From NCBI GenBank assembly GCA_958366945.1, contig CATXCY010000010.1:6463-70462 (forward strand): 64,000 nt of DNA, written 5' to 3'. This stretch comes from an uncultured bacterium (GTDB lineage Bacteria; Vulcanimicrobiota; Xenobia; Xenobiales; Xenobiaceae). Position 1 is the first letter of the stretch; every line of letters begins with the position of its first letter. Shown here in pieces: positions 24,865 to 44,623 of the stretch. Below the pieces are notes generated by a model. That model saw only the letters and a program-made list of their open reading frames with translations, did not search any database and was not told where the DNA came from. The translations under genes and the position numbers were made by a program.

Positions 24865-25881
24865 ATGGTAAAAATAAGTTCTGCCCAAAGTGGCACTTTT
24901 GCTGACGGTAGTATCGCAATATCTAGTTATAAAGCCAAAGCAGGCTACAGCGATAAGCCTGATTATCAAGCCGAGCAAATAGACAAGGGAGACAGTCTGT
25001 CCTTAACAACAGATATTGGCTCCTTTTTTAATTTTAACCATTTGTCTTCTGGACATCTTCGTCAAGGTACATTAAGTACATCTTCAACAAAGCAAGAACA
25101 AGTTTCTCCAAATTCTCTTATACCCAGACACTTAAGTGAGCAAGAAGCTGAAGCTTTATCCAACCAGCAACTCAAAGCAGAATATGGACGCCATAGTCAA
25201 ATATCTTCTGATTCGGAAGCCAAACAGCAGAAATGTATTAGTCGCTCCATTGTCTTAAGCCAAAATAGGGAGCAAGCTTTGCATATGAATAGGCTGAGCT
25301 CTACTTTGAAACAAAGCGGCCGAAAATTGGCACAGCAGGCTTTGGCTCAGATCGCTTCTGGAGTGGCACTTTACGCTTCAGGAGCGGCTATGGAAGCTGC
25401 GGGTAAGGCTATGCTTGGTTGTCCTTTTACCAAAGCTGCTGGCATGGCCCTCGTATCGAAAGGCAAAGCTTTGAAACAACGTGGTATGCAAATGCGCCAA
25501 TATGGGCAAAAATTGGAGCTTAGTTCTAAAAATTTATTGAGCTCTGGGCTCAGCTTAGGAGCTTCTGCCAATAAACAGATTAACTATGTTAAAAACGCTT
25601 GGCAAGCTCTCAATAATATTTATCAACAAATAAAAACTGTGGGAAATTTAGCCAAAAGTAGTATGCTTTGTGCTGAAAATGTGGGACGTAAACGTGGCCT
25701 TTCTTTTACTTCCACGCCTAGTGGAAATAAATTAAAGGTTGGATTGTCTGCTTCCAAAATTGACAATGCGGTTGTGAGCACGTCAAGTAAGGTAACCAAT
25801 TCGAAAAGTTCAGCCGTTACCAGCAGTGCCGTAAAGCCCCTGGCTTTAGTCATGGGGAGTATGCCAATTGAAGTAAAATAG
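24865..25881 (+). CDS. Hypothetical Ser/Ala/Gln-rich protein (first gene of paralog cassette)
   Basis: Strong RBS agagggggaag. 338 aa, low complexity, no signal peptide. Helical Ala/Gly/Met-rich central segment. Confidence 0.5.
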   Translation: MVKISSAQSGTFADGSIAISSYKAKAGYSDKPDYQAEQIDKGDSLSLTTDIGSFFNFNHLSSGHLRQGTLSTSSTKQEQVSPNSLIPRHLSEQEAEALSNQQLKAEYGRHSQISSDSEAKQQKCISRSIVLSQNREQALHMNRLSSTLKQSGRKLAQQALAQIASGVALYASGAAMEAAGKAMLGCPFTKAAGMALVSKGKALKQRGMQMRQYGQKLELSSKNLLSSGLSLGASANKQINYVKNAWQALNNIYQQIKTVGNLAKSSMLCAENVGRKRGLSFTSTPSGNKLKVGLSASKIDNAVVSTSSKVTNSKSSAVTSSAVKPLALVMGSMPIEVK

Positions 25882-26031: not shown

Positions 26032-27249
26032 ATGGCTAAATTTCCAGTGCTAGACGATAACTTTCCACGTATTATTCCTTCTTTCAGACAGTTAGTAAAA
26101 ATTATGTCCGAATGTGTGGCCGGCGGAGTTAGCTTAACTTGTACCGCCTTTGAGTTCCGCCAATGTGATGCTGCTTTAGGAACAGCTTTGGGCAATTTTA
26201 TGGAAGTTTTGCGCTTAAAAGAACTTCCTCCAGAGCGCAATGAAGCAATTAACGAAATAGTGCTTTTGTTTACGCGTATGAGTTCCGAAATGGCCAAATT
26301 AGAAACAGCTCTGAGTATGGATGCTACAGCTGCGGCCGTTTCTTGTGTGGCCAATATTTACGATCACTTAAAAGATTTGGAAGAATTAAATATGGACTTG
26401 AAAGCCGCTGTTGGCGATAGCCATATTTATTCCGAAGTGCCGGTGGTGGACAGTTTACTGCGAGCGGGCAATTTTGTCTTAGAAACTAACGGAGCCGAAT
26501 GGGAAGCTCTGAGTGCCCGTTTGGAAGCTCTTATTCCTCAGTGGAATGAGATCGTCTCTGGTACTGGACTGCCGGAAGAACTAATTCGCCACGACAGAGC
26601 GTTGGAGCGCCTCGTTGAGGTACTTAACGAGCGAAATTTAGAAGCTTTGCCAAAAGTTCTGGAAGAAGTAAAATCCAGCGGCGAAGATCTGGTCAACTTC
26701 CAAGATAGTCAAATAGACACCGATACTTCCTCTGTAGTTTTGTGCCCCTATTGTGGTAAGCCTATGATCGAGGGTAGTAAGAAGTGCTTCTCTTGCGGCG
26801 CCAGGATGCCAGAAGAATTTGAGCGAGATTCTACAGCCGACAAAGATTCTGAAAAAGGCGAAGCGGCTTATGAAGGCATGCCAGAATATGTACAGCGTAT
26901 TATGGATATCGCTCAAGAACTTCCCAATAATGCCAAGATGATTCGTCCTTTCAAACGTGCTGTGGGAGAATTGCGTAGACGTGTAGCCGATGCCAATTCG
27001 CGTATCAATAAAATGGCTTCTTCTAAAATTAAGACCACTCCGGAAGAACGCGAAAATATTGATGGCATCGTAGATTTAGCTAATACTTGCATAGAAAATC
27101 TCTCTAAAGCCGTTGAGCTTTTGGAGGAGTTTGAACCACCTGTCGACAGGTTCCATTTGCAATGTGCTTTGGAAGTTATGGTTAAAGCGGTCAAAGAAAT
27201 GCGTGGCATGGGCGGTTTGGCTCAAAAATATCGCAATTCTAAAAAGTAA
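26032..27249 (+). CDS. Zn-ribbon-containing helical protein, paralog A
   Basis: N-terminal motif FPVLDDNFPRIIP and central CPYCG...CFSCG ribbon. It aligns along its length to the next gene. Internal ATG chosen (ORF track starts at 25948). Confidence 0.5.
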   Translation: MAKFPVLDDNFPRIIPSFRQLVKIMSECVAGGVSLTCTAFEFRQCDAALGTALGNFMEVLRLKELPPERNEAINEIVLLFTRMSSEMAKLETALSMDATAAAVSCVANIYDHLKDLEELNMDLKAAVGDSHIYSEVPVVDSLLRAGNFVLETNGAEWEALSARLEALIPQWNEIVSGTGLPEELIRHDRALERLVEVLNERNLEALPKVLEEVKSSGEDLVNFQDSQIDTDTSSVVLCPYCGKPMIEGSKKCFSCGARMPEEFERDSTADKDSEKGEAAYEGMPEYVQRIMDIAQELPNNAKMIRPFKRAVGELRRRVADANSRINKMASSKIKTTPEERENIDGIVDLANTCIENLSKAVELLEEFEPPVDRFHLQCALEVMVKAVKEMRGMGGLAQKYRNSKK

Positions 27250-27294
27250 TCAGTTCTCTTTTGCGTGCACATGACACAGCTCATTGGAGGTACC

Positions 27295-28485
27295 ATGGTA
27301 GATAAGCTGCCTAAGCTAGATGATTCTTTCCCCAAATTGATTCCCCATTTGCGTACTTTTGTAAGTGGTTTGGAACATTGTATAGTCAATAAAGAACCTC
27401 TTTCCCAGCTTCGTGAAGAATTACACCAATGCGATGTTGTTATGTCTGCTTTTGTACTGGCTTTTAAGTACAGTGTGCGCGGCTATGACTACAACGAAGA
27501 AGAACTGGAACATATCGCTCAAGTTTATGCCGATATTGAAGGTGTCGGTGGTGTGCTTTCTTCTCTCATTTGTGATTTAAAAGACGATGATGTCGAAGGC
27601 GCTGTACGTGATGTTAATGCTCTGGTCAATCAGTTGAAAGAAACTGAAAAAAGCTTAGCCAAGCTCGAAGAACTAAGAAATTCCAAGGCAAAGATTTCTG
27701 AATTTGACAGCATTGATGGAGTCCTTAAAGCTGGTCAGGCCGTGGTTGAGGGACGTCGTGGTTGGGAAATGTTGGAAAATCGTCTCGACTATTTGCGCCC
27801 ATCTTTTGATAAGCTGGTCGCTTGCAACTCTTTGCCTGAGCATATAGAAGATTATTGCGAAGCTTTAGATAATTTATTTAGAGTTTGCGAATGTCAATCT
27901 GTAGAAGAATTACCTGCCGCCTTAGAAGCTTTAAAAGCGACTGGTGATGTACTGATAGAAAAATATAAAGAAGCTAAAGCTAAACAAGAAGCTTTGGCTG
28001 CACAACAAGTTTGGCATTGCCCTAAGTGTGGTTGTGAAGTCAGTGAATGGGATAAGCGTTGTCCTTCTTGTGGAATGAGGCTGCCTGAGCGTATCGTCAG
28101 TGAAGTAGGGACTGAGAATAATTGTTTATTGCCCATGTTACCTACATGCGTGCAAACAATTTTAGATAGCGTAAGCTCTTTGCGCGAAGGTAATGATGCT
28201 TGGGCCGAGTTCTCAGCTGGATTGCATGAATATGGCAAATTTGTAGGCGAGCTTAAAGATAGGTACGCCTCTTTGCCAGAAAGTGTTTTTAATGGCGCTG
28301 AAGCAGAAGGTGAGTCTTTGATTCTATCTCGCGAAGCTATGGAAGAAGGACTCACTAAATTAGAAAATGCCTATTATGTATGTGAACACATGCAAAATGG
28401 TGGCGAAGTTAGCGATGAGGAACTCGATTCTACGCTAGAAAGCATGATTGAGGGAGTAGAACAAACACGTCAAATAGCTGGTTAA
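27295..28485 (+). CDS. Zn-ribbon-containing helical protein, paralog B
   Basis: ATG after the RBS ggagg. N-terminus LPKLDDSFPKLIP, ribbon CPKCG...CPSCG, acidic helical regions. Collinear with paralog A. Confidence 0.55.
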   Translation: MVDKLPKLDDSFPKLIPHLRTFVSGLEHCIVNKEPLSQLREELHQCDVVMSAFVLAFKYSVRGYDYNEEELEHIAQVYADIEGVGGVLSSLICDLKDDDVEGAVRDVNALVNQLKETEKSLAKLEELRNSKAKISEFDSIDGVLKAGQAVVEGRRGWEMLENRLDYLRPSFDKLVACNSLPEHIEDYCEALDNLFRVCECQSVEELPAALEALKATGDVLIEKYKEAKAKQEALAAQQVWHCPKCGCEVSEWDKRCPSCGMRLPERIVSEVGTENNCLLPMLPTCVQTILDSVSSLREGNDAWAEFSAGLHEYGKFVGELKDRYASLPESVFNGAEAEGESLILSREAMEEGLTKLENAYYVCEHMQNGGEVSDEELDSTLESMIEGVEQTRQIAG

Positions 28486-28513
28486 AATTTCCCAAAGTTT
28501 GTCTTTTTCTATA

Positions 28514-28569
28514 ATACCCGCAAAAGTACGCGAGCTGCTTAGAAGTGCGTACAAAGCGGGTATTTTTTG
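28514..28569 (+). terminator. Strong rho-independent terminator
   Basis: ATACCCGCaaaaGTACGCgagctgcttagaagtGCGTACaaaGCGGGTATTTTTTgt: nested hairpin plus T-run. Confidence 0.75.
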
Positions 28570-28680
28570 TGATGAGTTAATTAAAAATATTCTATAAAAA
28601 ATTTGCCTGCAACTCTTTACTTTTAGGCCTTGTGCCTTGAAAATAAGGACAAGTCTAGTTTTAAAAGAGAGGTAATTCTC

Positions 28681-29814
28681 ATGGGTGTTTTATCTACTGC
28701 TTCTACTATAGCTATGATGACGGCTAACGATTACAAGAATGCTCAAGCCATCTATGCTAATATGCAACAACAGGCTACGCTTGCCCAGAATGGTGGTATG
28801 GGAGTTCTTACCCAGCAAGCTCTTAAGGCTGCCTCCGCGCAGAATATGGAATTGCTTAATCAGCAAGCCGCGCAAGCCGCTAAAGCTTCCTCTGGCTCTT
28901 CTTCTATCGATTCTATATCATCTTCTTTTAGTGACCAGATTCAGCAACTGACCTCTTCCAATCTTTCTGTCACTGATCAGATTAGCCAGATTACTTCCGC
29001 TTCTGGTATGTCTGCTTCTTCTGCTGCTGGTTTTTCTACTTCTACAGATTTTACTCAGGCTATTATTGATAGCATTTCTTCTGCTAGCAAGTCTTCTTCC
29101 AGCTCCAGCACCAATAGCGACGTAATGACTAGCGCTACCAATATGCTGAAGACTTACTTCAAACAGTTCTGCCCTGGCATGAGCGATGAGCAAATTTCTG
29201 CTATTTGCAAATTTGCCGCCTCTCAGTATGGTGACCTGGCTAAGGCCATGGATATGAGTTCCTTAACTTCTAGCGTTATGGGCTCTTCTTCTACCGGCAG
29301 TGCCAGCAGCTCTGGAAGTGCTAGCAGTGTAGGTAACAATGGCAACTACGGCGCCAATAAGGGCGTAAGCGGTTTGCTTTCCGATGCTGGCGCTATGGTT
29401 GGTATGACTGAGCAGTCTAATGCTGCTTCTATTAACAAAATCACCAAAAAGAGTGGTATCAATTGCCAGACTACCCCTTGGTGCGCTGCTTGGGCAATGA
29501 ATATGCTCAAAGACCATGGTGTGTTGGATACTTCTTCTTGCTCCAACGTCAACTATTGTCCCACTATCGTAAACTGGGCCAAAAAAGAAAATATTTGGGC
29601 TGGTCGCGGTTCTTACACTCCTCAAGCTGGTGACGCGATCCTCTTCGACTGGCAGGGTGATGGTACTTCCGATCACATTGGTATCGTAGAAAAAGTCGCC
29701 AACGGTAAGGTTTATACCATTGAAGGTAACTCTTCTGACTCCGTGGCCAGAAGAAGCTACAGCTTGAGCAGTAGCAAAGTTATGGGCTATATCAACTGCG
29801 CCGCTCAAAAATAA
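28681..29814 (+). CDS. Polymorphic-toxin-like protein: low-complexity N-terminal region, conserved internal module, C-terminal CHAP-domain peptidoglycan amidase/peptidase
   Basis: ATG after the RBS agagagg. C-terminus TPWCAAWAMNML...AGDAILFDWQGDGTSDHIGIVEKVANGKVYTIEGNSS has the CHAP Cys and His motifs. No signal peptide. Confidence 0.6.
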   Translation: MGVLSTASTIAMMTANDYKNAQAIYANMQQQATLAQNGGMGVLTQQALKAASAQNMELLNQQAAQAAKASSGSSSIDSISSSFSDQIQQLTSSNLSVTDQISQITSASGMSASSAAGFSTSTDFTQAIIDSISSASKSSSSSSTNSDVMTSATNMLKTYFKQFCPGMSDEQISAICKFAASQYGDLAKAMDMSSLTSSVMGSSSTGSASSSGSASSVGNNGNYGANKGVSGLLSDAGAMVGMTEQSNAASINKITKKSGINCQTTPWCAAWAMNMLKDHGVLDTSSCSNVNYCPTIVNWAKKENIWAGRGSYTPQAGDAILFDWQGDGTSDHIGIVEKVANGKVYTIEGNSSDSVARRSYSLSSSKVMGYINCAAQK

Positions 29815-29844
29815 GTAAATAGCACTATATAGCTTTGCAATAAC

Positions 29845-29888
29845 AACTCCCTCCGAGTATAAATTTAGCTCGGGGGGAGTTTTCTTTT
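29845..29888 (+). terminator. Rho-independent terminator
   Basis: AACTCCCTCCGAGtataaatttagCTCGGGGGGAGTTttctttt. Confidence 0.75.
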
Positions 29889-29993
29889 GACTAAGATTAG
29901 ATGCAAATAAAGAAATAATAAAGAAAAGTCTAGACGCCTTGGCAAGCTGTCGTTATACATAAGAAACTACTTTTTAGGTTTGGAAGGTGCGTT

Positions 29994-30938
29994 ATGTCTT
30001 TGCCATCTATCACCATGAATTTCTTGGCTGCGCAAGGTGTTGCGGGATTGCCAACCAGTTCCAATAGTGCAAGCACTGGCGTTAATAGTACTGCTGTTTC
30101 TGCTCTTGATAGCGCTTCTCTTAGTTCTTTAGCTACAGCAGGAACTGATGGATTGGCCAACCTTGGCTCTTTGTCTGATTACTTGTCTGGTCAGGCCTCT
30201 GGAAGTTCTGGCAGCAGTGCCTCTTTGGGACTTTCTGGCAGTGCCGATTTTGCTTCCATGGTTGGTGAAATTGCCAAGCAATATAAGGGCAGCAGTTCTT
30301 CTTCTGCCAACAATCAGGTAATGTCCACTGCTGCCAATATGTTAAAAACATATTTTAAGCAATTTTGTCCTGGTATGAGTGACGACCAGATTACCGCTAT
30401 TTGTAATATGGCCTCTGCACAATACGGCGATTTAGCTAAAGCTATGGATATGAGTTCTTTAACTTCCAGTGTTATGGGCTCTTCTTCTGCTGCTTCTGGA
30501 GCTACTGGCGCTTCTTCTAGTGCTGGTTCTTCCGCAGTTTCAAAAGTAAGTGCCAAAGACGTTAAGGGTACCGCTTGGGGCAAGGCTTTAGCTGCTGACG
30601 CAGAGTCTCATGCCACAGGTAGCGGCGGCTGGTGCTTCAAATATGTGCGCCAAGCTTTAGAGCGCCATGGAGTTACTGGAGTTGGTGGCGCCAGTGCTTA
30701 TATGGCTGCCGATCAATTAGCCCGCAATAGTAACTTCAAAGAAATTAGTGTTTCAGAATCAGATCTTCGCAATTTGCCTGCAGGTTATGTTGTCGTTTGG
30801 AATAGAGGTAACGGTGCTAGTAGGCAGCATGGCCATATTTGCATCTCTTTAGGCGATGGTAGAGAAGCTTCTGACGTTATTCGCAAAATGACTCAAGGAT
30901 ATGGCACTTCCTTTAGAGTTTTTCAGCCTGTAAAATAA
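29994..30938 (+). CDS. Polymorphic-toxin-like protein: low-complexity N-terminal region, same conserved internal module, C-terminal Tae4-like papain-fold peptidoglycan amidase
   Basis: C-terminus GGWCFKYVRQALERHG...AGYVVVWNRGNGASRQHGHICISLGDG parallels the Cys (xCxxxxxxLxxxG) and His (GH-hydrophobic) motifs of the Tae4 family of gamma-D-glutamyl-mDAP amidases. No signal peptide. Confidence 0.55.
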   Translation: MSLPSITMNFLAAQGVAGLPTSSNSASTGVNSTAVSALDSASLSSLATAGTDGLANLGSLSDYLSGQASGSSGSSASLGLSGSADFASMVGEIAKQYKGSSSSSANNQVMSTAANMLKTYFKQFCPGMSDDQITAICNMASAQYGDLAKAMDMSSLTSSVMGSSSAASGATGASSSAGSSAVSKVSAKDVKGTAWGKALAADAESHATGSGGWCFKYVRQALERHGVTGVGGASAYMAADQLARNSNFKEISVSESDLRNLPAGYVVVWNRGNGASRQHGHICISLGDGREASDVIRKMTQGYGTSFRVFQPVK

Positions 30939-30956
30939 GTTGCTATTAAAATAAAA

Positions 30957-31000
30957 AATAACGTTCTGTCTATATTTCATTTGCAGAACGTTATTTTTTT
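30957..31000. terminator. Bidirectional rho-independent terminator (convergent genes)
   Basis: aaaataAATAACGTTCTGtctatatttcatttgCAGAACGTTATTTTTTT. Confidence 0.75.
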
Positions 31001-33315: not shown

Positions 33316-34416
33316 CTAATGACGAGGGAAATTCTTAATTGTAGATACTACAGTGGCAATTTGCTCGTCGCTAAGTTCGGGGAACATAGGCAAGGACATG
33401 ACTTCTTTTTGCACTTGCTCGCAAATTGGCAAAGAGCCTTCCTTCATGCCGCTGGATGCAAAAGTTTTTTGCAAGTGAAGGCATACTGGGTAGTAAATGG
33501 CCGGACCAACACCGTTTTCACGCATATAATCGAAAAGCTCGTCACGATGAGGAGTGCGAATAGTGTACTGGTGGAAGACGTGATGGAAACCTTCGCGCTC
33601 AAGAGGAGTGATCACTCCGCTGTCTTTCAGAGCTTCTGTGTATTTTTGAGCTACAGAGCGACGCTTTTTATTCCACTCATCGACATGTTTGAGCTTGACG
33701 CGCAAAGCGGCAGCCTGAATTTCGTCTAAACGACTATTGGTGCCTAAAATTTCGTGATAGTATCTGACCTTACTGCCGTGACCGCGCAGCATTTGCACTT
33801 TTTCAAAGTACTCGTCGCTATTGGTTAAAACCATACCGCCGTCGCCAATACCGCCTAAGTTTTTGCTGGGGAAGAACGAGAAACAGCTGAGATCGCCGAA
33901 TCCTCCGACTTTTTTGCCATCTACGCAAGCTCCGGTAGCTTGAGCGCAGTCTTCAATTAAAGCTAAATTGTGCTCTTGGCAAATAGCCTTAATGGCTTTG
34001 ACATCGGCAGCGTGTCCGTAAAGGTGGACGCAAATTACAGCTTTGGTATGTGGAGTGATAGCTTTCTTTAAGCTTTCCGGATCTAAAGTAAAAGTGCGAG
34101 GGTCAATATCGGCAAATACAACTTTGGAACCAGCCAAAGCTACAGCGCCGGCGGAAGCTACAAAAGTGAAGGAAGGGACGATAACTTCATCGTCGGCTTT
34201 AAGATCTAGGGCTCTCACTGCCAATTGCAGAGCATCAGTGCCGTTCCCTACGCCTATACCGTGTTTAACTCCGTTCCAAGCCGCAAACTCTTCTTCGAAA
34301 GCTTTTACTTCGGGGCCTAAAACATATGCAGTAGAGCGCAGAACTTTCAGTACGGCTGCTTCCAATTCATCTTGGATTTGAGAGTACTGAGTGCGAAGCT
34401 CTAAAATAGGGATCAT
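33316..34416 (-). CDS. DegT/DnrJ/EryC1/StrS-family PLP-dependent sugar aminotransferase
   Basis: VIVPSFTFVASAGAVALAG, DCAQATGA, FSFFPSKNLG (PLP lysine). 366 aa. Confidence 0.88.
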   Translation of the reverse strand: MIPILELRTQYSQIQDELEAAVLKVLRSTAYVLGPEVKAFEEEFAAWNGVKHGIGVGNGTDALQLAVRALDLKADDEVIVPSFTFVASAGAVALAGSKVVFADIDPRTFTLDPESLKKAITPHTKAVICVHLYGHAADVKAIKAICQEHNLALIEDCAQATGACVDGKKVGGFGDLSCFSFFPSKNLGGIGDGGMVLTNSDEYFEKVQMLRGHGSKVRYYHEILGTNSRLDEIQAAALRVKLKHVDEWNKKRRSVAQKYTEALKDSGVITPLEREGFHHVFHQYTIRTPHRDELFDYMRENGVGPAIYYPVCLHLQKTFASSGMKEGSLPICEQVQKEVMSLPMFPELSDEQIATVVSTIKNFPRH

Positions 34417-34768: not shown

Positions 34769-36583
34769 TTAACCTTTGCTGCGTACTTCAAACTCTAAGC
34801 GCCATTTAGGAATGGAGTCTTGGCAACACCAAACTTCTAAGGTACCTACTTCGGTTACATAAGTTTCTAAAGTAACTGGTACTACTTTACCAATTTCTCC
34901 CGCTTCAGCCGGTAAAGTAATTTGCAACGAAGGCAATTCTTCTATATCGTCTTCCCAATCGTCGATTAAGTCACCAATTTTATCTTGCTGTCGACAAGTG
35001 GAAGCTAAAAATCTAAATTCAGCCAGTTCGCCTATGACCAGGCCGAAACTGCGATTAGGTAGACGCTCGCGTGAGTCTTCTTCCATGCCGAAAGGAGCGA
35101 CGCATAAAGCTTTAATGGGAGGAACAAGACCAGGAACAGCTGGCATGGAAGTTTCGATACCAACATAATAAGAGCGATTGGTACCGGCTTTAATTCTTAT
35201 TCCAGAACCTTGACTAGCCAAACCGCTGCGCACGGCTCCGCGAGCTACGGCCAAGTCGTAGTCCGCTCCTACTAATTCTTTGGCGGGAGGAGCTCCCACA
35301 GATTCTAACCAAGAGTTTACCGTTTCCAATAAACGACGGCGCAAGATGGGAGCTTTCAGCACGCCTCCGTTAAAGAGAATTGCTGTAGGAGCAAAAATGG
35401 GAGCGGAGCCATCTTCTGGTTTATTGGCTGCCAAAAATCTGGCCAAATGTTTGGTGATAGCCGGATTCGATTCAAAAGGCAAGCCCAATTCGCGCAAACC
35501 ACTTTGACGAGACCGTTCAGCTTGTTCATCAAGGGAACATTTAGGGAAGAATCCGTCTACAATTAGTTGCTCGGTAACTTGGCGGCTTAAGGAGTCGGCA
35601 ATGGAAGAAGCTATTAAGCTGCTGCCGCGTCCAGGAATGGTGACGCTCCACTCTTCCTCGGCGTATTCTTGTAACAGTTGCTCTTTGGCTGTGCGGCAAG
35701 CATGGGTGAGGACTTGCATTTGCCAAGCGTCAAGCTTAATTTTACGCTCTGATTTTAGCTTTTGCTGCATATACACAGCCAAAGTCAGATCCATGTTGTC
35801 TCCGCCAAGTAAGAGATGATCTCCTACAGCTGAGCGCTCTAAGCATAAGCTGCCGCCTTGGTCGGCTACAGTAATAAGGCTAAAGTCGGTAGTTCCTCCA
35901 CCTATATCACATACTAAAATTTTGTCTCCGACTGCTACTTGAGAGCGCCAATCTTCTTCAGTGTTAACCAACCAAGCATAAAAAGCGGCTTGAGGCTCTT
36001 CTAAGAGGGTTAAATTTTTGATGCCAGCTTTTTGAGCTGCTTGAACGGTTAGTTCTCTAGCTATCGTATCAAAGGAAGCAGGTACAGTTAAAACGACTTG
36101 CTGATCTTCTAAGGGCTGATCGGGGTGTTCAAAATTCCAAGCTGAACGTAAATGCTCCAAATAACGAGCCGAAGCGTCAATGGGGGAGATATGCTCCACT
36201 TCTTCGGGAGCGTTCCAAGGCAAAATAGGAGCACTGCGATCTATTTGCTCACTAGAAAGCCAAGACTTGGCTGAAGAAACAACTCTGTGGGGAACTTTAG
36301 CGCCTTGCTCACGGGCCATATATCCGACTATGTCTTTGGCCTCTTTATCCCAAGGCAATTCGATACTATGGGCTGGCAATTCGTGGGAGCCGGGGAAGTA
36401 AAGAAATGAAGGCAGAGTCTTGCGTGGCTCTACTGTAGCCGGATAGGTAAGCTGAGGAACAGCAAAATGATTTATAGGAGGAGTCTCTTTAGCTGCCTTC
36501 GCTTGTGCTGAAATGGATTCCGGATCAGACCAAGCTAAAGCGCAATTTGTTGTTCCCAAGTCTATACCTATAATCATATGCAA
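34769..36583 (-). CDS. Hsp70-family (actin-like ATPase) protein, non-canonical
   Basis: IIGIDLGTTNCALAW, VLTVPASFDTIARELTVQAAQKAGI, VCDIGGGTTDFSLI. Confidence 0.8.
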   Translation of the reverse strand: MHMIIGIDLGTTNCALAWSDPESISAQAKAAKETPPINHFAVPQLTYPATVEPRKTLPSFLYFPGSHELPAHSIELPWDKEAKDIVGYMAREQGAKVPHRVVSSAKSWLSSEQIDRSAPILPWNAPEEVEHISPIDASARYLEHLRSAWNFEHPDQPLEDQQVVLTVPASFDTIARELTVQAAQKAGIKNLTLLEEPQAAFYAWLVNTEEDWRSQVAVGDKILVCDIGGGTTDFSLITVADQGGSLCLERSAVGDHLLLGGDNMDLTLAVYMQQKLKSERKIKLDAWQMQVLTHACRTAKEQLLQEYAEEEWSVTIPGRGSSLIASSIADSLSRQVTEQLIVDGFFPKCSLDEQAERSRQSGLRELGLPFESNPAITKHLARFLAANKPEDGSAPIFAPTAILFNGGVLKAPILRRRLLETVNSWLESVGAPPAKELVGADYDLAVARGAVRSGLASQGSGIRIKAGTNRSYYVGIETSMPAVPGLVPPIKALCVAPFGMEEDSRERLPNRSFGLVIGELAEFRFLASTCRQQDKIGDLIDDWEDDIEELPSLQITLPAEAGEIGKVVPVTLETYVTEVGTLEVWCCQDSIPKWRLEFEVRSKG

Positions 36584-36624
36584 ACGTCTCCCAGAATAGT
36601 TTATAAAAGTCCCAATTTACCAGG

Positions 36625-37131
36625 CTATAACTCTACTTCAGCCGGACAAATAACGTCTGAATCTTCGTCCTGAGCGCTTTGGGGCAAATTGGCTTTTTGT
36701 AAGCGCCAGCCTTTGTGACGCAAGATCCCTTTGAAGGGCGGATCGCCTTCTACTTTGCCTACCAAACGAATTGCGCCTGGATCGAAGCCGTCTTCTACAG
36801 TAATTTCTATACCTTCTTCTTCGGTACGGATAGGCTCCAGAATCAAATACTCTTGGACAGCTTTGCGGCAGCCTTTATAAACAGTAGATTTTACTACAGC
36901 TCCGACTTGAGCGTCAGGGACATTCTCTAAATCTTCTTGCAAAAAGTCTATAAGCCGTCCTTCTCTCTGAAGCAAAGCTAAAACTCCTACCGCACCGGGA
37001 TAAAGCGAAGGTACTCCGGACGGAGTTTCTTGAACAACTTCGCGATCTGCCAGCAGAAGAGCCAACTTTTCGGCAAATTCTTTATTAAACAAAGCTTTGA
37101 AAAAAGCTTTAAAAGCTGTGATTATACGCAT
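36625..37131 (-). CDS. Small acidic protein, possibly DUF2760-like Hsp70 partner
   Basis: 168 aa, N-terminus MRIITAFKAFFKALF, directly downstream of the Hsp70-like gene on the same strand. Confidence 0.35.
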   Translation of the reverse strand: MRIITAFKAFFKALFNKEFAEKLALLLADREVVQETPSGVPSLYPGAVGVLALLQREGRLIDFLQEDLENVPDAQVGAVVKSTVYKGCRKAVQEYLILEPIRTEEEGIEITVEDGFDPGAIRLVGKVEGDPPFKGILRHKGWRLQKANLPQSAQDEDSDVICPAEVEL

Positions 37132-39176: not shown

Positions 39177-40880
39177 CTATTGACTGATTAATTTGCGCAA
39201 ATCCCCGTATTGTCTGATCTTAAACCAAGTTAATTCTCCGTTAAGTAAGTAACGCCAGGCTACAGCTCCCATTTTTATGAAATTAGTTGCCCAAGCTAAA
39301 TAAAACGGAAATTGCCAATGACGTTTAAAAAAATCTCGTCGCTCTAGCAAGAAATTTATGAAACTTTTGGGTATGAACGATTTTGAAGCCAGACAGTATA
39401 TAGCTAAATAAAAGCGATCTTCTGGACTACGAGGCCAATCCATCGAAACACGGAACTGCTTCCAAGCTTTGTTGTTCATGCCTTCAACCTCATCGGGAGA
39501 AAGTTTGCCTTCAGCCAGTAATCTTTTGGTTATGGCTGTGCCTGGAAAATAGTTAAGTGAGTAAAAATAGACGTCGTAAGGGCGTTCTAGCTCTAACATA
39601 AACTTGGCTGTTTCTAATTTCATCTTTTCATCGGCCCAAGGGTTGTCGATAATTAGATCATAAACAGCTGATATGCCCAGTTGTTTGTTGAATTTGGAAA
39701 AGGCTAGTATATTATCGTTGCCCGGTATGCGGTTATGAACAGCCAAACTTTCCTGCGGTGAGCCGCTTTCGATGCCTGTTTGCATTCGGACCAAGCCGGC
39801 TTTTTTTAGCTTCTCCAGAAAAGGCTGACGTAACATAGGTGGTATAAGCATACATTCAAAGGGCAAACCTATACGCTGTGGATATTTTGAGCAGAATTCG
39901 TCTACCCATGAGGGAGGGGCTGCAAAAGCTGTATCATCATCTATTTTTACTCTAGCCAAACGGGGAAAATGCTTTTTTATATATTCAAGCTCGCCTAAAA
40001 TGTGCTCTACGGAGCGTAGACGATAAAATTTTTGTTTGTCGGCCGCAAATTTTTCGCGCAGAATAGATACATAACAGTAAGAACAATTATAAGGACAGCC
40101 CCGTGAACAATAAATTCTGTATTCAGCTGTTCTCTTCCAGGGCTCTTCATTGTGAATTTTTTTATCTTCTATATAAAACTTATTGAAATCGTCTACATCT
40201 GGATAAGGCAATTCGTCCAAGTTGGCAATTAGAGGGCGCATTTCGTTTTTGTAAATTTTGTCTCCCAACTTTGCCCAAATATTGGGAATATCGCCGGTAA
40301 AATTATTGCTGTATAGAGCCTCGCATAAGTCTATAAGTGGAGCTTCTCCTTCGCCCAGACAGAGATAATCGGCGCAATCTAAAGCTCCTTCGGGGACAGC
40401 AGTAACGTGAATACCGCCCCAACATACTGGTAAATCAGAAAAGCGTTTTTTTAGTGCTTTGGTAAGCTCTTTTACCATTGGCAACAAGCTAGAAATAAAG
40501 CCTATGCCTACAAGATTGGCTTGTTTGTCGGCTATAATTTTGAATACCAACTCTAGTTCTTGAGCTGAAGGCATTTCCAATTTGTTATTTACCCAATCGC
40601 GCAAGAAAATTAGATCCACCTGGAAACCGGCGCGGCGTAAAGCTGCTGATAAGTAGCGCAAACCGGAATTTTCAACGCTGTAAATAGCTATTAATATTAC
40701 ATTAAATTGTTTTGGCTCTCCGTACCAACCAGAGCGAGGTGCCCAGGGAGCATGAATTTGTTTCTGTGCCGATCCTAAAGCCGGATCGAAAAGAGCCTCT
40801 GCCGATCCTGGAGAAGCGCCGGGAGCAGTTAATTTTGATGAAAAATTGTCATAAGTAATAGTTTTATCTGAATTTAACAT
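39177..40880 (-). CDS. B12-binding-domain radical SAM protein
   Basis: N-terminal B12-binding Rossmann region (VILIAIYSVENSGLRYLSAALRRAGF), radical SAM motif CSRGCPYNCSYC. Overlaps the upstream gene by 7 nt. Confidence 0.8.
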   Translation of the reverse strand: MLNSDKTITYDNFSSKLTAPGASPGSAEALFDPALGSAQKQIHAPWAPRSGWYGEPKQFNVILIAIYSVENSGLRYLSAALRRAGFQVDLIFLRDWVNNKLEMPSAQELELVFKIIADKQANLVGIGFISSLLPMVKELTKALKKRFSDLPVCWGGIHVTAVPEGALDCADYLCLGEGEAPLIDLCEALYSNNFTGDIPNIWAKLGDKIYKNEMRPLIANLDELPYPDVDDFNKFYIEDKKIHNEEPWKRTAEYRIYCSRGCPYNCSYCYVSILREKFAADKQKFYRLRSVEHILGELEYIKKHFPRLARVKIDDDTAFAAPPSWVDEFCSKYPQRIGLPFECMLIPPMLRQPFLEKLKKAGLVRMQTGIESGSPQESLAVHNRIPGNDNILAFSKFNKQLGISAVYDLIIDNPWADEKMKLETAKFMLELERPYDVYFYSLNYFPGTAITKRLLAEGKLSPDEVEGMNNKAWKQFRVSMDWPRSPEDRFYLAIYCLASKSFIPKSFINFLLERRDFFKRHWQFPFYLAWATNFIKMGAVAWRYLLNGELTWFKIRQYGDLRKLISQ

Positions 40881-42049
40881 AGCGGACTTACCCTTTTTAT
40901 TTCGTTAGCTAGATCCGAGGGAGAAGGCAGAGGCTTAGCGGAAAAACGGCGGAAATTCATGCGCAGAGCGTTAAAAAAAGCGGAGGTATTATGCAAAGTT
41001 AAAGCTATCTCCCACCAACAAGGACGCAAGCAAGCTCGACAATTATGACGCAAATTTTTGAGATAATTTAAGTCGCGTTTTTGCTGGTACCAATTTACAA
41101 AATCGCTTTCATAGACTTTGGGCGCTTTACTGGAAGCGTCATTTTGAAAATGACACATAGAGTAAGTGCCGCTTGGGCTGATAGAAAAACTAAGGCCGCC
41201 AGTTTGGCAATCTGTTCCTGTGCCCCAATAATTGGTATTCGTCTGTTGCGCAGTAGTAGATTTTGTGCTGTCGGCAGCTTTTAAGAAATTGACCATAGCT
41301 TTTAAATAAGGCTCAGAATTAAAAATCGGTGATTGTGGTTGCCGTTTAGCTTGTAATATGTAGTTAAGCAATTTGTTGAGAGCGGCTTCATCTTTTTCAC
41401 TAAAGCGCATTGCTTCTGAATCAGCAGAACAAGCCAGAATTTCTCCTTGATAGCTGTGTCTTTCTAAGGGAACTAAAGATAAATAAAAATTATAGGCTTT
41501 GGCTATAGCTAGCATTTGCGGAATATCTTTTATATTGCGCGTTGAAACTACACAATTTAAGATGCCAGTTCCGCCACGTTTACGAATTATTTCCGCCCAA
41601 AATTTAATTCGCTCAATTATCTTTTCCCAAATTTCTGGCTTGTGGCATATTTCACTCTGAACTTGGGGATGAGGAGTATCTAAAGAAATTGAAATGTGAC
41701 GCAACCCAGCCTCGACTACTGCCATATGTAATTCCTCTGTGCCTGCTAGGGCGTTGGTCAAGACTCTAGTTTCAATTCCTCTGTCGATAAAAGCTTTGAC
41801 TATTTTAGGTAAGTCTGGGCGCAGAAAAGGTTCACCACCTCCCAGAGAAATGGCCATAGTGCCGAGGCGACGCAGATTATCGGCTGTGGATTCTATTTGC
41901 GCAATTGTAAGTTCTTCGTCTTGACGCCCTTTTTTCCATAATCCACACATGGCACAAGTGAGGTTGCAGCGGTGAGTCAAGCCAAAATGAACATATATAG
42001 GTGTGTTGCCGTTCCAAAAAGCTTTAACAAGCGACCAAGGGTTTTTCAC
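40874..42049 (-). CDS. Radical SAM protein with C-terminal SPASM-like Cys cluster
   Basis: THRCNLTCAMCG (CxxxCxxC), GGGEPFLRPDL, C-terminal CRACLRPCWWE. Confidence 0.75.
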   Translation of the reverse strand: MKNPWSLVKAFWNGNTPIYVHFGLTHRCNLTCAMCGLWKKGRQDEELTIAQIESTADNLRRLGTMAISLGGGEPFLRPDLPKIVKAFIDRGIETRVLTNALAGTEELHMAVVEAGLRHISISLDTPHPQVQSEICHKPEIWEKIIERIKFWAEIIRKRGGTGILNCVVSTRNIKDIPQMLAIAKAYNFYLSLVPLERHSYQGEILACSADSEAMRFSEKDEAALNKLLNYILQAKRQPQSPIFNSEPYLKAMVNFLKAADSTKSTTAQQTNTNYWGTGTDCQTGGLSFSISPSGTYSMCHFQNDASSKAPKVYESDFVNWYQQKRDLNYLKNLRHNCRACLRPCWWEIALTLHNTSAFFNALRMNFRRFSAKPLPSPSDLANEIKRVSPLC

Positions 42050-43503
42050 AATTTCAGGATCTCCCAGCCAGCTTTTAATTTGCGGGCCATATCATTAAAA
42101 TTTTTAAGCTCTAGCAACTTGCGGAACATTTGCTTAGGGCGCAAATAAAAGCGTTTGAAAGCTTTATCGCATAGAGAGCTGAGCTCTGAGGCTGTAAAAA
42201 ATTCTGTCCATACTTGAGGCTTAAAATCAGGATATGGATTGGCCAAAAAATTCTCCCAATGTTGCGGATCGAGAATGCCTCTAGCTACACCTTGATCATA
42301 AATCAAAGTGTTAGGATAAGGAGTTAAAATTCCAAATAGAGCGTAATCAGGATCGAGAGAAATGGCAAAATCTACAGTACGATTTATTTCATCTATAGAA
42401 CTGTCATGAGGACAGCCGATCATAAAGTAGCATACCGTAGTTAAACCTTCATCAGTAAGCATTTTGAAGGCCTGACGCACCTTATCTGTAGTCAGATTTT
42501 TATTTAAAGCCTTCATACCAGCATCTGTACCAGACTCAACTCCTATATGCACTCTGGTACAACCTGCCAAACGCATAGCTTTTACGGTTTCTGGAGTTAG
42601 GCAATTGGCGCGGGCTCGAATATTCCAATTTACTTTAATGGAGCGTTTATTTATTTCTTCACAAATAGCCAAAACGCGGTCTCGACGGACGTTAAAGGTA
42701 TCGTCTACTATATATATTTCATGTACACCTAAATTGGCGCAAACTTCCATTTCATCTACTACTGACTTGGCACTTCGCCAACGCCAGGTAGTACGTCCGG
42801 GAGTGTTGCAAAAAGAACATTTGTAAGGACAGCCACGGCTGGTTAAGAGAGAAGTTGCTATAGCTTCACTACCCAAAACGTAGCTATACTTGCGGTAGTC
42901 TAGTATCTCGCGTCGAGGAAAAGGTAGTTTATCCAAATCGTCTATGGGTGGTCGTGAACATGTTTGCACGATATTCCCTTGATTGTCTTTAAAAAATAAG
43001 CCTGCAATGTTGCGCAAGCTATTTTCTAAAGTTTGACAATCGTAACCGTGGCTGTCGCTCCAGGAGGCTAAGTGGGCTTGCACAACTTCTGTAAAAGCTT
43101 CTTCTCCTTCAAAGGGAATGCAACCATCCAAACATTGGTATTTCATGCACTGTTGGGGAAAATCAGAAACATGCGGGCCGCCCCACCAAACCTTTACCGT
43201 TTTACCCAAATCTTTTTTTACCGACTCAGATACTTGAATCATGTCAATTAGATCATGAGTATGACCGGTTAGGCCTACTATTTGTGGTTTATAGTCAATT
43301 ATAAGTTTGCGCAATTGCTCAAGGTGAAGATGATCGGCCAAACAATCGATAAGACGTGTTTCTACCTGAGTATACTTATGGAGATGGGCTTCTATATAAA
43401 GCAAGCCTAAAGGCGGAATAGTGTTGGTTTCCGCATTTACCGTAGTTGGCACTTCTGAGGATATACTGTTGTCACGTGGTGGATTTATTAAAAGGATTCT
43501 CAT
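42046..43503 (-). CDS. B12-binding-domain radical SAM protein
   Basis: MRILLINPP N-terminus, radical SAM motif TSRGCPYKCSFCNTP. Confidence 0.82.
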   Translation of the reverse strand: MRILLINPPRDNSISSEVPTTVNAETNTIPPLGLLYIEAHLHKYTQVETRLIDCLADHLHLEQLRKLIIDYKPQIVGLTGHTHDLIDMIQVSESVKKDLGKTVKVWWGGPHVSDFPQQCMKYQCLDGCIPFEGEEAFTEVVQAHLASWSDSHGYDCQTLENSLRNIAGLFFKDNQGNIVQTCSRPPIDDLDKLPFPRREILDYRKYSYVLGSEAIATSLLTSRGCPYKCSFCNTPGRTTWRWRSAKSVVDEMEVCANLGVHEIYIVDDTFNVRRDRVLAICEEINKRSIKVNWNIRARANCLTPETVKAMRLAGCTRVHIGVESGTDAGMKALNKNLTTDKVRQAFKMLTDEGLTTVCYFMIGCPHDSSIDEINRTVDFAISLDPDYALFGILTPYPNTLIYDQGVARGILDPQHWENFLANPYPDFKPQVWTEFFTASELSSLCDKAFKRFYLRPKQMFRKLLELKNFNDMARKLKAGWEILKL

Positions 43504-43567
43504 AAGGTTGTTTTGACAGCTCTCGGACTTTTATTGCATGTATATGCATTGATTAATTAGCGGATTG

Positions 43568-44596
43568 TTAGGAGCGCAGTTTGTTGCCCATTGCCATAAC
43601 CCATTGCAAAATAGTGCGATGATTGAGAGAAAAAAGTAGGTTGTACTCAGTAAAGCAAGTAGCCGAACAACTTTGGCAAGGCAATAGCTTTTGTCTGAGT
43701 TGCTTGGCTGCTTCAGCAAAACCTAATTCTATGGCATTGGGCCCCTGTTGATCACCTATAAGCAAAGAACAAGGATAAAGGCATCCATCTGCGTCTATAT
43801 TCAAATAGAACTGTCCGGCCCAACATTTTTTCCAAGCAGATCCACTGTCTGTAGAAGTGTTGTGACTGTAGTCTTTCCAATTGATAAGATGATCCAAACA
43901 CTGAATGGAATTACCTATCTTGCGCCCTTTAAGTTTAGCTTCTTTCAAATATTGTAAACATTCTCGATATTCTTCGTCAGAAGGGCGCAAGGGGTTGTTC
44001 ACTCCAAAATGATCGCTGTGATGCAATACTTGGAAAGTGGGAGTAAAACCATACTTTTCTGCTTCTTTTAAGATCCAGTCTACTTTGTAAATATTGTTAA
44101 TGGTTAAAACTGTAATAGTCCATAAAGCAACTGGACTTTGGGAGGCAATTTCTATGGCCGCCATCGCCTTTTCATAGGAGCCAGGCTCACGGTTGGCGTC
44201 ATGCGCTTCCTGAGGGCCGTCCAAAGATATGATTAAATGATCTAACTTTTCCAAGAGCTTAGTCTTTTGGGAAATGAGATATCCGTTAGTGTCTAGGGTT
44301 GTATATAAATTATTCTCTTTGGCACAACTGACGATTTCTTCAATATCAGGACGCAACAAAGGCTCGCCGCCCCAAATGCCCAAACGCTGAATACCGCAGG
44401 CTGCCATTTCTCGAATCAGTTTTCGCATTTGCTCTGTGCTCAATTCTGGCTGACGGCGGGCTGGAATTTTGCAATAGCGACAGTGCGACTGACAAGCATT
44501 ATTGGTGGCGATAGTGGCAAAAATCGGAGTTGGAGCACCGCTTAGGCGCCCTTTTAGGACGGCTGCTCCGGCTTTAGCCATGGTAATGAATTTCAT
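43568..44596 (-). CDS. Radical SAM protein with SPASM-like C-terminal Cys cluster
   Basis: NNACQSHCRYCK (CxxxCxxC), GGEPLLRPDI, C-terminal CQSCSATC and CLYPC. Confidence 0.75.
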   Translation of the reverse strand: MKFITMAKAGAAVLKGRLSGAPTPIFATIATNNACQSHCRYCKIPARRQPELSTEQMRKLIREMAACGIQRLGIWGGEPLLRPDIEEIVSCAKENNLYTTLDTNGYLISQKTKLLEKLDHLIISLDGPQEAHDANREPGSYEKAMAAIEIASQSPVALWTITVLTINNIYKVDWILKEAEKYGFTPTFQVLHHSDHFGVNNPLRPSDEEYRECLQYLKEAKLKGRKIGNSIQCLDHLINWKDYSHNTSTDSGSAWKKCWAGQFYLNIDADGCLYPCSLLIGDQQGPNAIELGFAEAAKQLRQKLLPCQSCSATCFTEYNLLFSLNHRTILQWVMAMGNKLRS

Positions 44597-44623
44597 GTTG
44601 CTTTTTGTCTCTCCGTATTGTGC

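Follow-up and report, generated by a model that had tools for sequence, protein, structure and literature searches.

Gene A (28681–29814, 377 amino acids) and gene B (29994–30938, 314 amino acids) lie next to each other on the + strand of the 64-kb stretch of DNA considered here, the whole of which is referred to below as the window. Each encodes a protein in which a conserved block of 59 residues, called here the module, is placed ahead of a C-terminal domain of predicted peptidoglycan hydrolase type. In A the order is a helical N-terminal region rich in Gln, Ala and Ser, the module, a Ser/Gly linker and a CHAP domain, while in B it is a disordered Ser-rich N-terminal region, the module, a Ser/Ala/Gly linker and a Tae3-like amidase domain. 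Gene A has a ribosome-binding site (GAGAGG) 7 nt 5′ of its ATG, and its start is called identically in all relatives. The names carried by the proteins of the window at NCBI (for A, ‘CHAP domain-containing protein’ of Candidatus Bruticola sp.; for B, ‘hypothetical protein’ of the same) identify the host as Candidatus Bruticola sp., a gut bacterium of the class Xenobia in the Vulcanimicrobiota. A 2019-style human-gut metagenome-assembled genome record of a sister species (locus L009, CAAGRW010000158.1) is labelled ‘Candidatus Riflebacteria bacterium’ instead; since the catalytic domain of B has homologues in the Vulcanimicrobiota (Eremiobacterota), the Bruticola/Vulcanimicrobiota label is favoured here.

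The two copies of the module occupy positions 29116–29292 in gene A (+ strand, 59 codons, SDVMTSATNMLKTYFKQFCPGMSDEQISAICKFAASQYGDLAKAMDMSSLTSSVMGSSS; 89.5 bits with a local hidden Markov model (HMM) of the module copies) and 30312–30488 in gene B (+ strand, 59 codons, NQVMSTAANMLKTYFKQFCPGMSDDQITAICNMASAQYGDLAKAMDMSSLTSSVMGSSS; seen by BLASTP, as a DNA repeat and with the local HMM), and with the same HMM the module is found in no other gene of the window. When A and B are compared by BLASTP, one significant segment results (54 of 78 residues identical), the remainder of both proteins being unaligned, and its E value of 2e-32 is still obtained with adjustment for composition. At the level of DNA there is an ungapped direct repeat of 182 nt (29111–29292 and 30307–30488, spacing 1196) with 75% identity. 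The block, which runs from VM to GSSS, is longer than the 50 codons in which a first-pass annotation, made from the sequence alone, had recognised two in-frame copies of nearly the same peptide. Over that shorter span the observation holds good, with 44 of the 50 residues identical (88%) at a nucleotide identity of 76%, and the coordinates and sequence strings then quoted were also correct, save that copy 2 begins at 30339 and not at 30340. A weakly similar helix (DF..) lies about 25 residues upstream of the block.

The 36 nucleotide differences across the 50 codons fall 6/0/30 at codon positions 1, 2 and 3, so that the many third-position differences to which the same annotation drew attention are certainly present. 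By the method of Nei and Gojobori, pN is 0.058 and dN 0.061 for the two modules over these codons, and the synonymous differences (29.0 on 29.8 synonymous sites) are saturated, which means that for this pair the dN/dS ratio can be stated as an upper bound only, roughly <0.03. Where identical residues are encoded by degenerate codons the same codon is used in 15 of 39 cases, and a random draw from the codon usage of the window would be expected to give 15.3; it follows that the similarity of the two genes at the level of DNA is no greater than that imposed by constraint on the protein.

This overall agreement with random expectation conceals some heterogeneity along the module. Its first 35 codons show 69% DNA identity and share fewer codons than expected at random (6 vs 12, P~0.01), while its last 15 codons (29248–29292 vs 30444–30488, 45 nt, MDMSSLTSSVMGSSS) show 93% identity, with the same codon at 9 of 12 degenerate positions where 3.2–4.2 would be expected (P~0.0004–0.005); these last 45 nt may be a short tract with a different history (conversion), or one under codon constraint. 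Selection against DNA identity of the repeats was also considered, prompted by the fact that 14 of 16 twofold-degenerate codons differ between the two copies in the window, but was rejected because nine other cross-species pairings of an A with a B give 6–10 differing out of 15–16, so that the figure for the window can be put down to chance together with a modest difference in G+C content at third codon positions (0.53 vs 0.34). This content is 0.45 for A overall (0.53 in the module, 0.48 in the CHAP domain) and 0.34 for B, the other genes of the window lying between 0.29 and 0.44.

Because the A/B pair is synonymously saturated, orthologues were fetched in order to assess selection. These comprised the same species from many metagenomes, at 99.85–99.92% identity (L001–L006), related species at about 80–85% nucleotide identity (L008, L009, L010 and L015), and a more distant syntenic relative (L012). 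For the module of A in the window, dN/dS is 0.004 against L008, 0.005 against L009, 0.033 against L010 and 0.135 against L015, and for that of B it is 0.018 against L009; corresponding values are 0.009–0.069 for the catalytic domains and 0.12–0.20 for the N-terminal regions, the module being, L015 apart, constrained at least as strongly as the catalytic domains. Within the species, six strains differ in the module by a single nucleotide polymorphism, which is synonymous. The module is thus under very strong purifying selection, as the first-pass annotation had supposed: four of the five unsaturated comparisons give 0.004–0.033 and the fifth 0.135, all far from the value near 1 that had been named as telling against it.

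Turning to the distribution of the module, no profile of Pfam (at E up to 10), NCBIfam, PADLOC or PHROGs matches it. When 1.84 billion cluster representatives were searched exhaustively with HMMER, only four proteins that contain it were obtained (P0063–P0066), all from one small CHAP-associated group, which speaks against its being a generic low-complexity linker; a word-indexed protein search gave a single fragment (P0001), and scans of genomes, metagenomes and viral sequences added only close relatives, with none from the viral scan. Judged by these searches, the module is a previously undescribed, lineage-restricted family confined to a handful of gut Vulcanimicrobiota genomes. Among the four proteins, P0063 is an orthologue of A and P0064 a distant orthologue of B, while P0065 and P0066 (about 205 residues each) are made up of Ser-rich spacers and two to three copies of the module and lack any enzyme domain. 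The gene for P0065 stands immediately 5′ of that for a 456-residue CHAP protein (at a distant locus, L011) whose CHAP domain is 63% identical to that of A, and whose N-terminal half contains three tandem module-like units (each E~1e-20 with the local HMM). The module therefore occurs once per enzyme in the clade of the window and as tandem copies in distant relatives.

The pattern of the module can be written as aromatic-x-x-[FY]-P-x-[ML]-S-[DE]-[EQ]-[IV] ... Q-Y ... A-M-D-M-S-x-L. The only residues that never change from copy to copy are the Pro and Ser in the P-x-[ML]-S turn; the surrounding pattern of aromatic and hydrophobic residues recurs, as does Q-Y. Within the clade of the window hardly any position varies in either paralogue, whereas distant copies keep only the core positions (the aromatics, the Pro and the Ser). 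In an AlphaFold2 model of B the module comprises a helix (residues 104–124), a turn at P-G-M-S and a second helix (residues 130–144), followed by a tail of low confidence, the predicted local distance difference test score (pLDDT) being 84–87 over residues 110–140 and below 50 over residues 150–178. The invariant AMDMSSLTSSVMG sequence lies in this tail; the region is possibly flexible, which would suit a linear binding motif. A peptide near the C-terminus of a DegT aminotransferase elsewhere in the window (gene 33316–34416; MFPELSDEQIATVV) is picked up weakly, and by chance, with the module HMM (E~0.01), from which it appears that F-P-x-L-S-D-E-Q-I is a generic helix-start motif and that searches for the module with short patterns are not specific.

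As regards the C-terminal domains, sequence and predicted structure together indicate that A and B belong to two different families of papain-fold enzymes, acting as amidases or endopeptidases on peptidoglycan. The domain of A (29359–29811, + strand) is of the CHAP type and belongs to Pfam PF05257, for which residues 264–350 score 49.3 bits against a gathering cut-off of 26 (E=7.3e-13). A also matches PHROG endolysin families (E=1.7e-17) and, weakly, TIGR02594 (26 bits vs a cut-off of 70.6). Its catalytic Cys (in PWCAAW; C42 of the domain alignment) and His (in DHIGIV; H106) are invariant in six orthologues, and the gene is present in every species compared. Searches of PDB sequences with the CHAP domain of A and with B gave no significant match.

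The domain of B (30561–30935, + strand) was recognised as a papain-fold amidase of the NlpC/P60–CHAP superfamily from an AlphaFold2 model and Foldseek. Homologues of the C-terminal 134 residues number 61; most come from Vulcanimicrobiota/Eremiobacterota, some carry a precomputed PF05257 flag, and a model calculated using their alignment has pLDDT >90 over residues 190–314. Its best match in the PDB is Tae3 (4hz9_A, E=1.7e-6, TM score 0.81 normalised to the target, root-mean-square deviation 2.1 Å, 23% identity), the next being NlpC/P60, Tae4 and Tae1 at E values of 0.01 and above; on the viral side it matches CHAP and virion-associated hydrolase domains. Across 56 sequences Cys214 never varies and His281 hardly ever. 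B has no Pfam match at E≤0.1, and its distant orthologue P0064 reaches 19.2 bits with PF05257 (cut-off 26); since the fold is the same, B is best described as a member of the superfamily and not of the Pfam CHAP family. In both proteins the catalytic Cys and His thus belong to the C-terminal domains, and the earlier description of the module as the functional core does not hold in the catalytic sense.

B resembles Tae3 of Ralstonia pickettii (PDB 4hz9) in its compact papain-like fold, in its conserved catalytic Cys–His pair and in its apparent lack of a Sec signal. It differs in its N-terminal extension of about 185 residues, which contains the module, and in belonging to a family found across the Vulcanimicrobiota, one member of which stands beside mreBCD-pbp2-rodA. 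It also has no adjoining Tai3-like immunity gene: there is no open reading frame (ORF) in the gap between A and B or between 30938 and 31045, where a convergent heparinase-like gene bounds B on its 3′ side. In a Pfam scan of ORFs from the 64-kb window no type VI secretion system gene was seen, and no mention of such a system was found in the literature searched on the host lineage under its older label of ‘Riflebacteria’. B is intact in the species of the window, in L009 and in the distant L012, wholly missing in L010 and L015, and represented in L008 by a remnant of its catalytic domain of about 170 nt (10789–10960).

Some features near homologues of the B domain in other genomes may be recorded at this point. 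In a Vulcanimicrobiota locus (L018, 911–9061) the homologue P0008 ends a row of mreB, mreC, mreD, pbp2 and rodA, with a signal-peptide-bearing ankyrin-repeat protein encoded just before it and a 125-residue gene after it that overlaps its stop codon; small genes overlapping the stop of a B-domain homologue (in L018 and L026) look unrelated to each other on inspection, and the window has nothing corresponding to them. Short proteins of 371–397 residues consisting of FHIPEP (the FlhA/SctV-type export gate) alone are encoded at L020 5156–6349 and L025 9833–10948, about 2–3 kb from the homologues P0019 and P0026, in loci that may be syntenic and so not independent; there is no FHIPEP-only gene in the 64-kb window.

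The resemblance of A to CHAP endolysins and autolysins (PF05257; TIGR02594-like) extends to passing the Pfam CHAP threshold and to the matches with phage endolysin PHROGs, but A stands in a chromosomal housekeeping context, the viral contigs scanned lack the module, and the TIGR02594 score is far below its cut-off. That the two genes might form a prophage or endolysin cassette was rejected on the same grounds, the neighbours including dnaG, rpoD, a DEAD-box helicase gene and sua5, with no prophage gene next to A or B.

A and B both appear to lack a Sec-type signal as judged by a hydropathy heuristic, the highest value over any 12 residues in their N-terminal 60–70 residues being 1.2–1.4, as compared with 2.0–2.5 for a canonical signal peptide encoded in the window (ORF 19921) and for B-domain homologues of other Vulcanimicrobiota. 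Flagellar type III export was entertained as a route, the N-termini of P0065 and P0066 loosely recalling axial flagellar proteins, and was set aside for want of Pfam support; flagella are absent from the one member of the phylum in culture (PMC9758169).

How the two copies came to be so alike can be approached by comparing species. In a quartet of A and B from the window and from L009 (171 nt), 19 sites speak for orthology, 2 for conversion within a genome and 4 for the third pattern, so that there has been no conversion since these two species split, in agreement with the earlier statement that recent gene conversion is not responsible. The accompanying statement, that the copies stem from an old duplication, is upheld as to age by the synonymous saturation, but a simple duplication accords poorly with the protein sequences: the A and B modules of the window clade are identical at 48 of 59 positions (81%), and those of B in the window and the syntenic B of L012 at 29 of 59 (49%, dN 0.45). 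These two B proteins share the N-terminal sequence MSL(P/S)(S/P)ITMNFLAAQGV. In the A of L012, 24 residues of the module are known, of which 14 are shared with either copy of the window and 12 with the B of L012. The copies of the window and of L012 are about equally far from outgroup copies, and the helix just upstream of the module shows, by eye, similar divergence whether A is compared with B or B with B. All this tentatively suggests that, at some time since the divergence of the L012 lineage but early enough for synonymous positions to have become random, the A and B modules were homogenised or co-evolved, a reading drawn from one distant genome; the alternative would be an acceleration specific to the module in L012. 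The ‘old duplication’ is thus probably better read as an ancient module that has been homogenised or is co-evolving.

The function that we favour for the module, with a confidence that we would put at about even, is that of a protein–protein docking or targeting unit that takes both hydrolases to a common partner or site. On such a scheme the module would bring two enzymes that apparently have no Sec signal of their own to the same destination, perhaps a route of export, a regulator or an anchor in the envelope, and having one partner in common would explain why the A and B copies are about 81–88% identical while the module differs by about 50% in the next lineage. Docking is preferred because whole surfaces appear frozen in both paralogues, because the copies track each other, and because there appears to be no Sec signal; the tandem copies in the CHAP protein of L011, together with the enzyme-less P0065 and P0066, support the idea of a modular unit. 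Our best guess is, therefore, that what the first-pass annotation called the functional core (with a query as to docking or recognition) is a putative non-catalytic docking module.

Docking of this kind would have analogies in two groups of known systems. The delivery domains of polymorphic effectors (MIX, FIX and LXG) similarly combine one non-catalytic module with different C-terminal enzymes in the same genome, and A and B share with polymorphic effectors the apparent lack of a Sec signal and, in the case of B, gain or loss between close species. They are unlike MIX, FIX and LXG in that there is no sequence relation, in that no secretion apparatus, adaptor or immunity gene is found near A or B, and in that the module is internal (residues ~105–205) and not at the extreme N-terminus. 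The second group is that of the FtsEX-controlled hydrolases PcsB, CwlO and RipC, which like A and B have a helical non-catalytic N-terminal half, a flexible linker and a C-terminal CHAP or NlpC/P60 domain. These proteins carry signal peptides and long coiled coils; they show no sequence similarity to A or B, and ftsEX is not in the window.

It must be said that several points weigh against docking. Among the window ORFs covered by the Pfam scan, no secretion-system or immunity gene adjoins A or B. The lack of a Sec signal rests on the hydropathy heuristic and not on a trained predictor. On the structural side, the module part of the alignment behind the model of B comprises three sequences, and the model of A, also from a three-sequence alignment, has a pLDDT of 35, too low to be usable. 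Repeats that bind the cell wall, too, typically vary in the number of their tandem copies, while the position of one B-domain homologue immediately after mreBCD-pbp2-rodA would fit a housekeeping enzyme with no need of special delivery. That neighbour, together with the retention of A in every species, could be taken to mean that the two proteins are housekeeping autolysins; a role as antibacterial effectors would find support in the Tae3-like and endolysin-like domains, in the apparent lack of a Sec signal and in the loss of B from three of six lineages, the absence of an immunity gene counting against it.

Of the alternatives, the one that fares best, though we consider it unlikely, is that the module is a cell-wall-binding repeat (a functional analogue of LysM, Cpl-7, SPOR or PG_binding_1) and holds the hydrolases on their substrate through avidity. 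The occurrence of one to three tandem copies N-terminal to a CHAP domain, and of proteins made up of repeats alone, is what would be expected on this basis, and a size of about 55 residues with a helical prediction resembles Cpl-7 or PG_binding_1 units. However, no known wall-binding family is matched at E up to 10, and the copies of L011 are strongly acidic and those of the window about neutral, which would be unusual for binders of anionic wall polymers. Nor does wall binding account for the near-identity of the paralogous copies when orthologues have diverged by 50%.

Rather more doubtful is the proposal that the N-terminal half, module included, serves as a pro-region or leader, keeping the amidases inactive in the cytoplasm, or being recognised and cut during a Sec-independent export, or both, with AMDMSSLTSSVMG-SSS as the site. 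This would be in keeping with the apparent lack of a Sec signal and with the position of the most conserved stretch, which is at the C-terminal end of the module, just before the Ser/Gly linker and in the low-confidence region of the model; the AMDMS-x-L motif moreover persists in P0064, P0065 and P0066. Against this, neither a processing protease nor a dedicated transporter is encoded in the window, the motif on inspection is unlike the double-glycine leader pattern, and the repeats of L011 stand in the same position without the tail motif.

A bolder version of the docking proposal, whose prospects we rate as slim, would have the module mark a Sec-independent delivery route for peptidoglycan-degrading effectors, with P0065 and P0066 acting as adaptors or plugs and B as an accessory effector that is gained and lost. 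If this were true, gut Vulcanimicrobiota of the class Xenobia would use one docking module to load enzymes whose killing or remodelling domains differ.

It seems very improbable that the copies represent nothing more than an old duplication, passively preserved around a conserved Cys pair forming a disulfide or metal site. Both copies in the window and most close orthologues do have both Cys residues, and the synonymous saturation shows that the copies are old; but the pair, which the first-pass annotation had described as conserved, is not maintained. The first Cys is replaced by Phe in the A orthologues of L015 and L007, and both are replaced in P0064 (by Phe and Thr respectively), while distant copies have Phe, Tyr or Asn in the first column and Thr, Ser, Val or Cys in the second; such substitutes look like those of buried hydrophobic or small positions. 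Passive preservation is also at odds with the finding that the A and B modules resemble each other far more than the B orthologues resemble one another. Least probable of all, and for the module as a whole refuted, is recent gene conversion, an assembly artefact or a DNA-level function of the direct repeat, a view to which the near-identical last 45 nt with their excess of shared codons lend some colour, but with which the random level of codon identity overall, the outcome of the quartet comparison and the recovery of an identical or nearly identical locus in independent assemblies from many samples (the assembly collection has the exact sequence of A in 194 of its indexed blocks and that of B in 96) are incompatible.

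To complete the description of the locus, the genes upstream of A in the window include type IV pilus genes, mutL, dnaG, rpoD and a DEAD-box helicase gene, and those downstream of B are the heparinase-II/III-like gene, the DegT aminotransferase gene, an Hsp70-like/DUF2760 pair, sua5, a radical-SAM cluster and the start of a dcw cluster. Strong hairpins with U-tracts bracket each of the two genes, which implies that A and B are separate transcription units. On the + strand these are a hairpin with a T-run at 28513–28570, 3′ of a zinc-ribbon gene (−23.5 kcal/mol, z=−4.2, 0 of 200 shuffles as good), an intrinsic-terminator-like hairpin with a U-tract at 29845–29889, 3′ of A (−24.7 kcal/mol, z=−5.8; overlooked by a simple consensus scan because its loop is of 9 nt), and a hairpin with a T-run at 30953–31000, 3′ of B and common to the convergent heparinase-II/III-like gene (−18.4 kcal/mol, z=−8.2).

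Directly upstream of A are two tandem paralogues (26032–27249 and 27271–28485) encoding helical proteins of about 405 residues, each with a central zinc ribbon, which are 26% identical to each other (E=5e-36), have no family assignment and keep their synteny in all close relatives. A link between these and A was considered and judged improbable, given the hairpin that lies in between (28513–28570) and the lack of the paralogues at the distant locus L011. Further upstream, 24865–25881 encodes a Ser/Gln-rich protein of 338 residues with no family match and no signal peptide, containing an internal hydrophobic stretch rich in Ala, Gly and Met; in style it recalls the N-terminal regions of A and B, but it has no detectable similarity to A. 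On the other side, 34769–37131 encodes the Hsp70-like protein (603 residues, with a partial HSP70/MreB match) and the DUF2760 protein, a pair that is syntenic in all relatives including L012. The minus strand at 39177–46423 carries four radical-SAM genes (two with B12-binding domains), a gene for a DegT-type aminotransferase and a flavin amine oxidase-like gene, a row that may be a modification or biosynthesis cluster.

That a shared non-catalytic module may be found on different hydrolase or toxin domains is already known from modular endolysins, from polymorphic effectors and from PcsB, CwlO and RipC, and the present finding extends this knowledge without overturning it. What is new is an extremely narrow domain family, in an uncultured gut phylum of essentially unknown cell biology, that is tied to two different amidases. 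The pair offers a clean example of conservation at the level of protein with fully randomised synonymous sites, and with it a hint of ancient homogenisation between neighbouring genes. If the module is indeed a docking unit, it would give a means of discovering how peptidoglycan hydrolases are delivered or controlled in these bacteria.

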